Assembly: GCF_904830955.1 (NCBI RefSeq)
Contig: NZ_LR882970.1
Length of the DNA stretch: 64,000 bases
Direction: 5' to 3' (one strand)
Source: Planktothrix tepida
Lineage (GTDB): Bacteria; Cyanobacteriota; Cyanobacteriia; Cyanobacteriales; Microcoleaceae
The translations under genes were made by a program, and so were the position numbers. The notes below the pieces were generated by a model. That model saw only the letters and a program-made list of their open reading frames with translations, ran no database searches and was not told where the DNA came from. Of this stretch, positions 35,223 through 38,010 are shown one piece after another; the stretch's first letter is position 1, and each line of letters opens with the position of its first letter.

Positions 35223-37454
35223 TCAGCCAAATTTCCCGGCCGTTGAAGCCAGTAGGAATGCAGCATAGGTAAGGATATAGCCCACCGTAAAGTGAACTAA
35301 ACCCGTTAACCATCCTTGAACAATTGACAGCGAAACGGGTTTGTCTTTCCAGATCACGAGGTTTGCCAGAGGGGTGCGTTCATGGGCCCAAACTAACGTT
35401 TCAATCAGTTCTTGCCAATAACCTCGCCAAGAGATCAGGAACATAAACCCAGTGGCCCAAACCAAATGTCCGAACAGGAACATCCAGGCCCAAACCGAGA
35501 GGTTACTGGTTCCGTAGGGGTTGTAACCATTGATCACCTGAGCCGAATACAGCCATAGGTAATCGCGCAACCAACCCATAATATAGGTTGAGCTTTCATT
35601 AAATTGAGCGACGTTTCCTTGCCAGACCCCTAAATGCTTCCAATGGAAATAGAACGTTACCCAACCAAGGGTATTCAGCATCCAGAAGGTAGCCAGGAAG
35701 AAAGATTGCTCCCAAGCCGACGTTTGACAAGTCCCGCCCCGTCCAGGGCCATCACAAGGGAAGGTAAAACCGAAGTCTTTTTTATCAGGCATCAGTTTAG
35801 TGCCACGGGCATCTAACGCACCTTTGACACAAATTAAGGTGGTGGTATGCAGACCCAGGGCGATCGCATGGTGAACGAGGAAATCACCAGGGCCAATAGT
35901 TAAAAACAACGAATTCTTACCAGAATTAATCGCTGCTAACCAACCCGGCAACCAAACATTCCCATGATTTGGCCAAGCGGTATGGGCAATACTGTCAGGG
36001 TTCGCCAGTAACACATCCATTGCATAAAGGGCTTTACCGTGAGCCGCTTGAATGAACTGAGCAAATACAGGTTCAATCAAAATTTGCTTTTCCGGTGTCC
36101 CAAAGGCGACAACCACATCATTGTGAACGTATATACCCAGGGTATGGAATCCCAAAAACAGAGACACCCAACTTAAATGAGAAATAATCGCCTCTTTGTG
36201 ATTCAAAACCCGATCTAAAACGTTGCCTTTGTTTTGGTCGGGGTCATAGTCCCGTACCCAGAAGATGGCAGCATGGGCAAAGGCTCCGACCATGAGGAAC
36301 CCAGCAATATATTGATGATGGGTATACAGCGCCGATTGGGTTGTATAATCCCTGGCGATAAACGCATAAGGTGGCATCGAATACATATGCTGCGCCACCA
36401 GCGATGTCACCACACCCAACGCAGCCAGATGAATTCCTAACTGGAAGTGCAGGGAGTTGTTATAGGTATCATACAAACCTTGGTGGGGTAAGTTGAACTG
36501 TCCTTCGGTGGGAACCCCAAACAACGGATCTTTCGAGTTCAACATCTCTTTAATACTGTGGCCAATGCCGAAGTTGGTTCGGTACATATGACCCGCAATA
36601 ATAAAGATCACCGCGATCGCTAAATGGTGATGGGCAATATCCGTCAGCCATAACGATTCAGTTTGGGGATGAAACCCACCCAAAAACGTTAAAATCGCCG
36701 TTCCTGCCCCGTCCGATGAGCCAAAAACGTGCCGTGCTGTATCAGGATTTTGGGCATAAACCCCCCAATTTGCAGTAAAGAAGGGTTTGAGTCCGGCTGG
36801 ATGGGGTAACGTGGTCAAGAAGTTATCCCATCCGACGTGCTGGCCACGGGATTCAGGGATGGCAACATGAACTAAATGGCCTGTCCACGCTAGACAACTG
36901 ACCCCAAATAAACCCGCTAAGTGGTGGTTTAAGCGAGACTCCGCATTCTTAAACCAAGACAAACTCGGACGATACTTGGGTTGAAGGTGTAACCAGCCCG
37001 CAAACAAAAACAATGCCGCCAAAAGCAGGAGGAACACAGCGCCTTGATAAAGCTCGGCGTTAGTTCTCATCCCAATGGTATACCACCAATGATAAACGCC
37101 CGAATAGGCAATATTAACGGGGTTTATAGCTCCGGCTTGGGAGAAGGCTTCCACCGCCGGTTTGCCAAATTGAGGATCCCAAATGGCATGGGCAATGGGA
37201 CGAATGTGCAGGGGATCTCGAATCCACTGTTCAAAATTTCCTTGCCAAGCGACATGGAACAGGTTGCCGGATGTCCATAAAAAGATAATTGCCAAATGAC
37301 CAAAATGGGAGGCAAAAATCTTTTGATAGAGATTTTCCTCGTTCATGCCATCATGGCTTTCAAAATCATGGGCCGTGGCAATCCCGTACCAAATTCGGCG
37401 AGTGGTTGGGTCTTGAGCCAGACCTTGATCAAATTTTGGGAATTTCGCTGCCAT
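35223..37454 (-). CDS. psaB: photosystem I P700 chlorophyll a apoprotein A2
   Basis: The N-terminus [36 protein letters not shown], the FX-binding loop [12 protein letters not shown] and the C-terminus ..LASTAGKFG are PsaB-specific. No psaA upstream. Confidence 0.9.
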
Positions 37455-38010
37455 GTATTTACTGACTCCATCAGAGCGAATCCAAGTTGCTAAAGATGAG
37501 CCAGTGCATCCGGGTTAATATTAAAAAAAACCCATTCATTAATCACAGAAAGGGATAGAAAAAAATCAAACCCGACTGCACTAGCAACACCCAACTTTGG
37601 AGAAATTGTGTTTCAGCGTTGAAACGAAACGCTACAATTCATCACCAACTTTATCGATAAAGATGGCAATCTCAACCCTCAAAAGAGGACATTTTTTACT
37701 TAAAAATCCCATTAAATAATCCAAAAAGGAGTTAAGGGATATTTAGCAATATGAATCCAGAAAATTTCAATTCCCAAGCTTAACTTCATAGAGAAGTAAT
37801 CAATACTTTACCGATTTCTGATCAATTCATTTTCTAACTTAAGGTAGAGATTTTGTTAATTTCGCTTGTAATCAATGATGAGACTTCTTCAATGGATGAG
37901 TTTTATCGCTTAATTTACAAACCGAATTCACAAACAGATCATGCTGAAGTTAGATGAGGGGAAACAGTCATCCCTTCAGAATAGATGAGTATTAGCTTTA
38001 GCTTACCTCT

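Follow-up and report, generated by a model that had tools for sequence, protein, structure and literature searches.

The locus described here lies in a 64,000-nucleotide stretch of Planktothrix tepida DNA (contig NZ_LR882970.1 of assembly GCF_904830955.1; the whole stretch is referred to as the window) and carries a psaB gene that stands without psaA (referred to as solo psaB). The gene, a second psaB that is intact and stands alone, is already annotated and published as a member of the PsaB3 type, and it is not new. Its reading frame, at 35223..37454 (minus strand), opens with ATG and comprises the codons of 743 amino acids and a stop codon. The product was matched by the TIGR01336 PsaB equivalog model with 1520.5 bits over residues 2-743 (cut-off 921.65), whereas the PsaA model yielded 661 bits, which is under the PsaA cut-off of 862. 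The termini are canonical (MAAKFPKF... at the N-terminus and ...ASTAGKFG at the C-terminus), so that the initial annotation of a complete psaB of 743 residues with canonical ends was borne out. The FX-binding loop and the residues characteristic of PsaB3 which follow it are encoded at 35703..35762 (minus strand, codons 565-584 in translation), where residues 565-576 form the loop with its two cysteines (Cys567 and Cys576) and QTSAWEQS comes next. All cofactor sites are retained, i.e., the FX cysteines, the P700 histidine, the A0 methionine, Trp673, Trp677 and the region of Leu706; the helix with the A0 methionine and the two tryptophans is kept at residues 669-685, and LFGHLVWA is found at residues 660-667. 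Positions 29300..43500 of the window (14.2 kb) agree without mismatch with contig LN889801.1 of P. tepida PCC 9214, and the solo protein is identical to CUR32740.1 / WP_072719439.1, to which the depositors gave the name 'Photosystem I P700 chlorophyll a apoprotein A2 2'.

P. tepida PCC 9214 also encodes a canonical PsaB (CUR31276.1 / WP_072718156.1), the accession of which adjoins that of PsaA (WP_072718157.1). The identity between solo PsaB and the canonical PsaB of the same genome is 86.9%, and the canonical protein is included in the PsaB alignment of Gisriel et al. 2023 (PMC10694217, supplementary file 8). A protein identical to the canonical PsaB of P. tepida is encoded on the chromosome of P. 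pseudagardhii (LR882967.1, 6,601,744 bp), by a psaB located 91 nt downstream of a psaA of 751 codons at approximately 5.51 Mb; the solo copy of that species is found on the same chromosome at approximately 3.52 Mb, about 2 Mb away from psaA-psaB. Canonical psaA-psaB pairs were also found in P. serta, in Planktothrix sp. PCC 11201 and in assembly GCA_010156995.1, and no psaA is present near the solo gene in the P. tepida, P. pseudagardhii or P. mougeotii loci. According to one alternative, the solo gene would be the sole canonical psaB of the genome, displaced from psaA by a rearrangement (a split operon). The gene is indeed intact and overall highly PsaB-like, and psaA is absent from the 64 kb of the window, in which a tblastn search with Planktothrix PsaA matched psaB alone (45% identity), as had been noted before for the upstream side only. 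The split operon is nevertheless excluded for all practical purposes, because the genome encodes another, canonical psaB; moreover, psaA-psaB is intact in P. pseudagardhii, and five columns which are invariant among the 151 canonical PsaB sequences are changed in the solo copy (see below). The initial annotation had considered either a psaB2-like paralogue standing alone or a rearrangement of the locus, and had suggested a search for a further psaA-psaB in the genome; the canonical PsaB thus found in P. tepida, together with the intact operon in P. pseudagardhii, supports the former and shows the latter to be wrong.

An alignment of 189 distinct PsaB sequences, collected from 80 genome loci and from a protein search, was used to examine the residue following the second FX cysteine, which is Gln in 38 sequences (referred to as Q-type) and Asp in the other 151 (canonical). 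The T. elongatus numbering used for comparison was anchored on Cys-B565/B574 and Asp-B575 (PMC9059760) and was also checked on the chlorophyll ligand His-B718, which corresponds to His721 of the window protein (PMC8575901). Five columns discriminate perfectly between the 38 Q-type and the 151 canonical sequences. Regarding substitutions, these are (window/T. elongatus) Cys542/Leu540, Gln577/Asp575 and Trp715/Arg712, as well as column 582, which holds Glu or Gln in the Q-type sequences (Glu in the solo copy) and corresponds to Asp580 of the canonical ones; the fifth column is an inserted Gln583, present in 38/38 Q-type sequences and a gap in 151/151 canonical ones. Cys542 (35829..35831, minus strand, within TTLICVKG) stands where Leu is found in 151/151 canonical sequences, and Trp715 (35310..35312, minus strand, within SLSIVQGWL) where Arg is found in 151/151, a position which in T. 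elongatus numbering is six residues past Leu706. Near-perfect discriminators were Thr578 (Ile576Thr, 97%), Thr564 (Ala562Thr) and Thr552 (Ser550Thr). The motif CD[IV]S/A..D occurs in all 151 canonical PsaB sequences, whereas PsaA reads CQVSGWD in 65 of the 66 psaA genes with a readable loop and CQISGWD in the remaining one. The view, given with little confidence in the initial annotation, that CQTSAWEQ resembles PsaA rather than the Asp-bearing PsaB was therefore correct (CQ in 66/66 readable PsaA, CD in 151/151 canonical PsaB), and the divergence hinted at there is the diagnostic mark of the PsaB3 family: in the alignment against PsaB sets that had been proposed, the solo copy falls with the 38 Q-type and not with the 151 canonical sequences.

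The cluster formed at 90% identity around the solo protein includes the PsaB3 of Leptolyngbya ohadii (WP_088891388.1). Ekman 2011 and Magnuson 2011 are reportedly among the sources for the 'PsaB2' of Nostoc punctiforme. This alternative PsaB was first named PsaB2 in proteomic work on N. punctiforme heterocysts and was renamed PsaB3 in 2023 (PMC10694217), and a Gln insertion beside FX is described for all PsaB3 (PMC10694217). The published PsaB3 alignment and maximum-likelihood (ML) tree already contain 'Planktothrix_tepida|WP_072719439.1' (PMC10694217), which is placed there as sister to Desertifilum with support of 97.4/100, with L. ohadii and the PsaB3 of Nostocales, including N. punctiforme WP_012407025.1, as neighbours (PMC10694217). 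Solo psaB resembles the PsaB3 genes (N. punctiforme 'PsaB2'; PMC4582080, PMC10694217) in being a solitary psaB without a paired psaA paralogue that exists beside a canonical psaA-psaB, and in having Gln for Asp after the second FX cysteine, the inserted Gln and the changes near the phylloquinone; a long spacer upstream of a solo psaB is found in Desertifilum and L. ohadii, too. It differs from the other PsaB3 in a Planktothrix-specific replacement of Ala705 by Ser beside Leu706, and no synteny was detected between its flanks and the solo psaB loci of Nostocales. The comparison with canonical PsaB (T. elongatus 1JB0 chain B; WP_072718156.1) shows agreement in length, termini, FX loop, P700/A0/A1 motifs and antenna domain, whereas the solo copy is not located beside psaA and carries Leu540Cys, Asp575Gln, Ile576Thr, Asp580Glu, the extra Gln and Arg712Trp. 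With PsaA it shares the Gln at the site of PsaA-Gln588 (CQ.S..), but the rest of the protein is PsaB-like, as indicated by the scores of the two models (661 vs 1520 bits).

A second PsaB isoform alongside the standard one is also known from the far-red-light response (FaRLiP), the PsaB2 of which binds chlorophyll f and is induced in far-red light, and the name 'PsaB2' has been used in some papers for both families. That the additional psaB of this cyanobacterium is such a far-red isoform is nonetheless hardly conceivable. The FaRLiP gene lies by psaA2 in a cluster of 20 genes and stems from a separate duplication, whereas the neighbours of solo psaB include no psaA2, psaL2, psaF2, psaJ2 or rfpABC and no apc or psb paralogues. 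PsaB chains of far-red PSI structures (6pnj/7lx0, 7s3d, 6kmx) score 1378-1429 bits, compared with 1530-1564 bits for white-light PsaB, and in the published phylogeny PsaB3 is unrelated to the far-red family.

Solo psaB is under purifying selection. Compared with P. pseudagardhii, 49 synonymous and 2 non-synonymous codon differences were counted, and compared with P. mougeotii, 83 of 2232 nt differ (96.3% identity), with only 2 amino-acid differences in the product. Because the cofactor-binding motifs are intact and the substitutions between species are almost all synonymous, solo psaB is, as far as its sequence can tell, a functional gene. The gene order around it is kept in P. tepida, P. pseudagardhii and P. 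mougeotii LEGE 06226, and the locus on LR882967.1 of P. pseudagardhii shows 97-99.9% DNA identity to the window in the same order. A silent duplicate in decay (an incipient pseudogene) or a recently acquired, unused foreign gene could also be imagined, in view of the solitary position of the gene, the ParD-like antitoxin and strain-variable islet directly downstream of it, a GC content above that of its flanks, and the published tree, in which solo PsaB groups with Desertifilum and not with the canonical PsaB of Planktothrix. Such a state is improbable, however, given an intact open reading frame (ORF) with all cofactor motifs kept, rates of non-synonymous substitution far under the synonymous ones in two species comparisons, the same position in three Planktothrix species, and GC values, overall and at third codon positions (GC3), which equal those of the resident psaA/psaB. 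GC3 is 0.50 in solo psaB, 0.52-0.60 in the canonical psaA/psaB and 0.24-0.35 in the neighbouring genes; the contrast with the flanks is thus attributed to the codon use of highly expressed photosynthesis genes and not to a recent import, since GC3 is like that of psaA/psaB. An ancient transfer or duplication is a possible origin of solo psaB, which bears on where the gene came from and not on its function.

Taken together, the solo gene is regarded, with a probability of about 0.9, as the P. tepida orthologue of PsaB3, i.e., as a monocistronic, functional paralogue which exists beside a canonical psaA-psaB and the product of which would enter a second population of PSI. Since a paired PsaA paralogue is lacking, solo PsaB would be expected to dimerise with the single PsaA, thereby giving rise to this second population; the published PsaA tree contains no third PsaA paralogue (PMC10694217). 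PsaB3 protein has been found in the PSI of L. ohadii and Chlorogloeopsis (PMC10694217), and its production and incorporation into PSI have been reported for N. punctiforme as well (PMC10694217). A variant PSI in which the electrostatics near the phylloquinones and FX are altered is most likely the consequence. The family-specific changes would cluster in the FX loop and at the stromal end of the last helices. In canonical PSI, PsaB-Asp575 lies close to A1A and FX and is protonated upon reduction of A1A; it is, along with PsaA-Gln588 on the opposite side, part of the reason for Em(A1A) being higher than Em(A1B), and it affects Em(FX) as well as which FX iron takes the electron (PMC9671125, PMC8575901, PMC9059760). 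The role of Asp575 in part of the redox asymmetry of A1A and A1B, and in the tuning of FX, is based on published electrostatic calculations. With Gln in place of Asp575, the residue would be the same as in PsaA at the matching site, so that both branches would be alike there. The exchange of Arg712 for Trp would remove a positive charge near the A1B site (a literature search on PsaB-Arg712 yielded no match), and the inserted Gln, together with Asp580Glu, would reshape the loop just past FX, with a new Cys at position 542. The predicted effect is a shift of the phylloquinone and FX potentials, by which the rates of forward and of back (recombination) electron transfer would be altered. No compensating change was found in the PsaA encoded beside Q-type psaB genes (see below), in which Gln588 is retained; a compensating swap between the subunits is therefore not indicated. 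According to a proposal of Rutherford and colleagues, summarised by Cardona 2015, such a PSI would be more efficient at low oxygen (PMC4582080).

Several points weigh against this interpretation. Regarding the phylogenetic placement, the neighbour-joining trees calculated here yielded a single Q-type clade only if the C-terminal signature columns were included, and the Q-type family was not resolved in trees of the N- and C-terminal halves from which these columns had been removed. Because these trees are weak, reliance is placed on the published ML tree, and the family is defined here mainly by the signature and that tree and not by our own phylogeny. Regarding the effect on cofactors, Cys542 and Trp715 were placed relative to them by sequence numbering and the literature only, and among the solved structures no Q-type PsaB was found, the best match in the PDB being the canonical 9l0a_B. 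The kinetics of Asp575 mutants suggest roughly equal shifts of A1 and FX (cited in PMC9671125), for which reason the net kinetic effect of Asp575Gln could be small.

Upstream of solo psaB lies a spacer of 556 bp (37455..38010, on the psaB strand, i.e., minus), which is AT-rich and presumably includes the promoter as well as the 5' leader of psaB as a monocistronic gene; the region contains no ORF on the strand of psaB. Its GC content is 34.7%, compared with 48% for psaB and 39% for the window. A GGAG is present 13 nt upstream of the ATG, and a weak sigma-70-like match was found at 37675..37648, although promoter-like matches in the spacer region were no commoner than in shuffled sequence. None of the Rfam families matched in 34700..38500, and the RpaB/HLR1-like repeat was not enriched (58 matches vs 57 expected), the single upstream match having 3 mismatches. 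On the other side of the gene, an intrinsic-terminator-like hairpin (35158..35195, minus strand) with a 12-bp stem including 6 G-C pairs and a 4-nt loop, followed by TTTTTGTGCT, begins 27 nt past the stop codon. The first gene beyond the spacer is a hypothetical ORF of 108 codons (38011..38337, plus strand), oriented divergently to psaB, and further on a FAD-dependent monooxygenase, an OppC-like permease, an AI-2E transporter and an HDIG protein are encoded, none of which is related to PSI. The earlier description of some 550 bp of AT-rich non-coding DNA followed by unrelated genes is therefore accurate. Downstream of solo psaB are a ParD-like antitoxin, an ORF of 426 codons without a family match and a homologue of the major vault protein (MVP).

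Over its 556 bp, the spacer differs from that of P. mougeotii by 6 substitutions and 1 indel. The divergence of 1.1% compares with 3.7% for psaB and 4-7% for the flanking regions, and the spacer is hence the best-conserved segment of the locus. The tract of low divergence runs on into the first 350 nt of psaB, for which reason constraint on the spacer and recombination are not separable. In P. pseudagardhii the spacer is identical (100%) and sits in a zero-mismatch tract of 2.2 kb, which is one of many. A special constraint on the spacer, as the cause of this identity with P. pseudagardhii, was considered and rejected, zero-mismatch tracts being typical of recombination. Between positions 32600 and 52000 the comparison with P. 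pseudagardhii gives a mosaic in which stretches of 2-4 kb without any mismatch take turns with others of 3-10% divergence. Such a mosaic of identity is the pattern expected of homologous recombination between Planktothrix lineages.

As a discovery the locus carries little weight, given that the gene and its family are public, as is its designation as a second psaB, and that the sequence is part of the PsaB3 dataset of 2023. Its value lies in being a clean natural variant without PsaB-Asp575, a residue to which, along with few others, the asymmetry of the PSI branches is ascribed, and P. tepida PCC 9214, which is non-heterocystous and culturable, could be a simpler system than Nostoc for the function of PsaB3. 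Unlike Nostoc, the host belongs to the non-heterocystous Oscillatoriales, and the heterocyst-related ideas put forward for Nostoc are not directly applicable for this reason; what has been proposed on PsaB3 in the literature derives from Nostocales that form heterocysts. It is tentatively conceivable, though on balance rather doubtful, that PsaB3 is a regulated, general 'symmetrised' variant of PSI (with Gln in both branches at the 575/588 site) and not an adaptation to heterocysts. Such a general variant would fit the fixed locus, the strong purifying selection and the conserved 556-bp upstream region in a non-heterocystous, benthic Planktothrix. Regarding other subunits, P. tepida (WP_139295152.1) and another Planktothrix are recorded as having a second PsaL which is extended at length at its N-terminus and resembles a second PsaL of L. 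ohadii (PMC10694217, supplementary file 20); carriers of PsaB3 may share further alternative PSI subunits.

Among the loci collected for comparison, a Q-type psaB located directly after psaA was observed in a Coleofasciculaceae metagenome-assembled genome (MAG; L002 7673-12229), in an Allocoleopsis MAG (L004 7820-12214) and in Scytonema sp. PCC 10023 (L040 7722-12214), the Q-type copy of which groups with canonical Scytonema PsaB in neighbour-joining trees. One possibility is that the signature is spread by gene conversion, another that some cyanobacteria use the variant alone in their main operon. In Scytonema sp. PMC 1070.18 (L035 10001-12223, 12638-14860), two canonical psaB genes, each 86.0% identical to the query, stand in tandem after psaA, which reflects a tandem duplication or else an artefact of the assembly. 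On a contig binned as 'Actinomycetota' (L019 10001-12226), which is almost certainly a mis-binned cyanobacterial contig, a solo Q-type psaB was found whose FX loop is unusual.

The strain-variable islet directly downstream of psaB and the ParD-like gene spans 33314..34842 and contains the 426-codon ORF (33534..34814, plus strand); in P. pseudagardhii the place of this segment is taken by a 505-residue AAA_15/ABC-type ATPase, in P. mougeotii by a NERD/UvrD helicase. The MVP homologue (30686..33304, minus strand) has 872 residues with Pfam Vault repeats, Vault_2/3/4 and MVP_shoulder, and a GC content of 49% compared with 39% for the window. It is full-length in P. tepida and P. pseudagardhii, and a remnant of 76 residues is found in P. 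mougeotii; MVP homologues are known from bacteria and cyanobacteria (bioRxiv 10.1101/872010). At 21136..27462 (plus strand), a signalling protein of 2108 residues is encoded which combines a Ser/Thr kinase, an AAA_16 STAND ATPase, TPR, GAF and PAS domains and an adenylate/guanylate cyclase domain.

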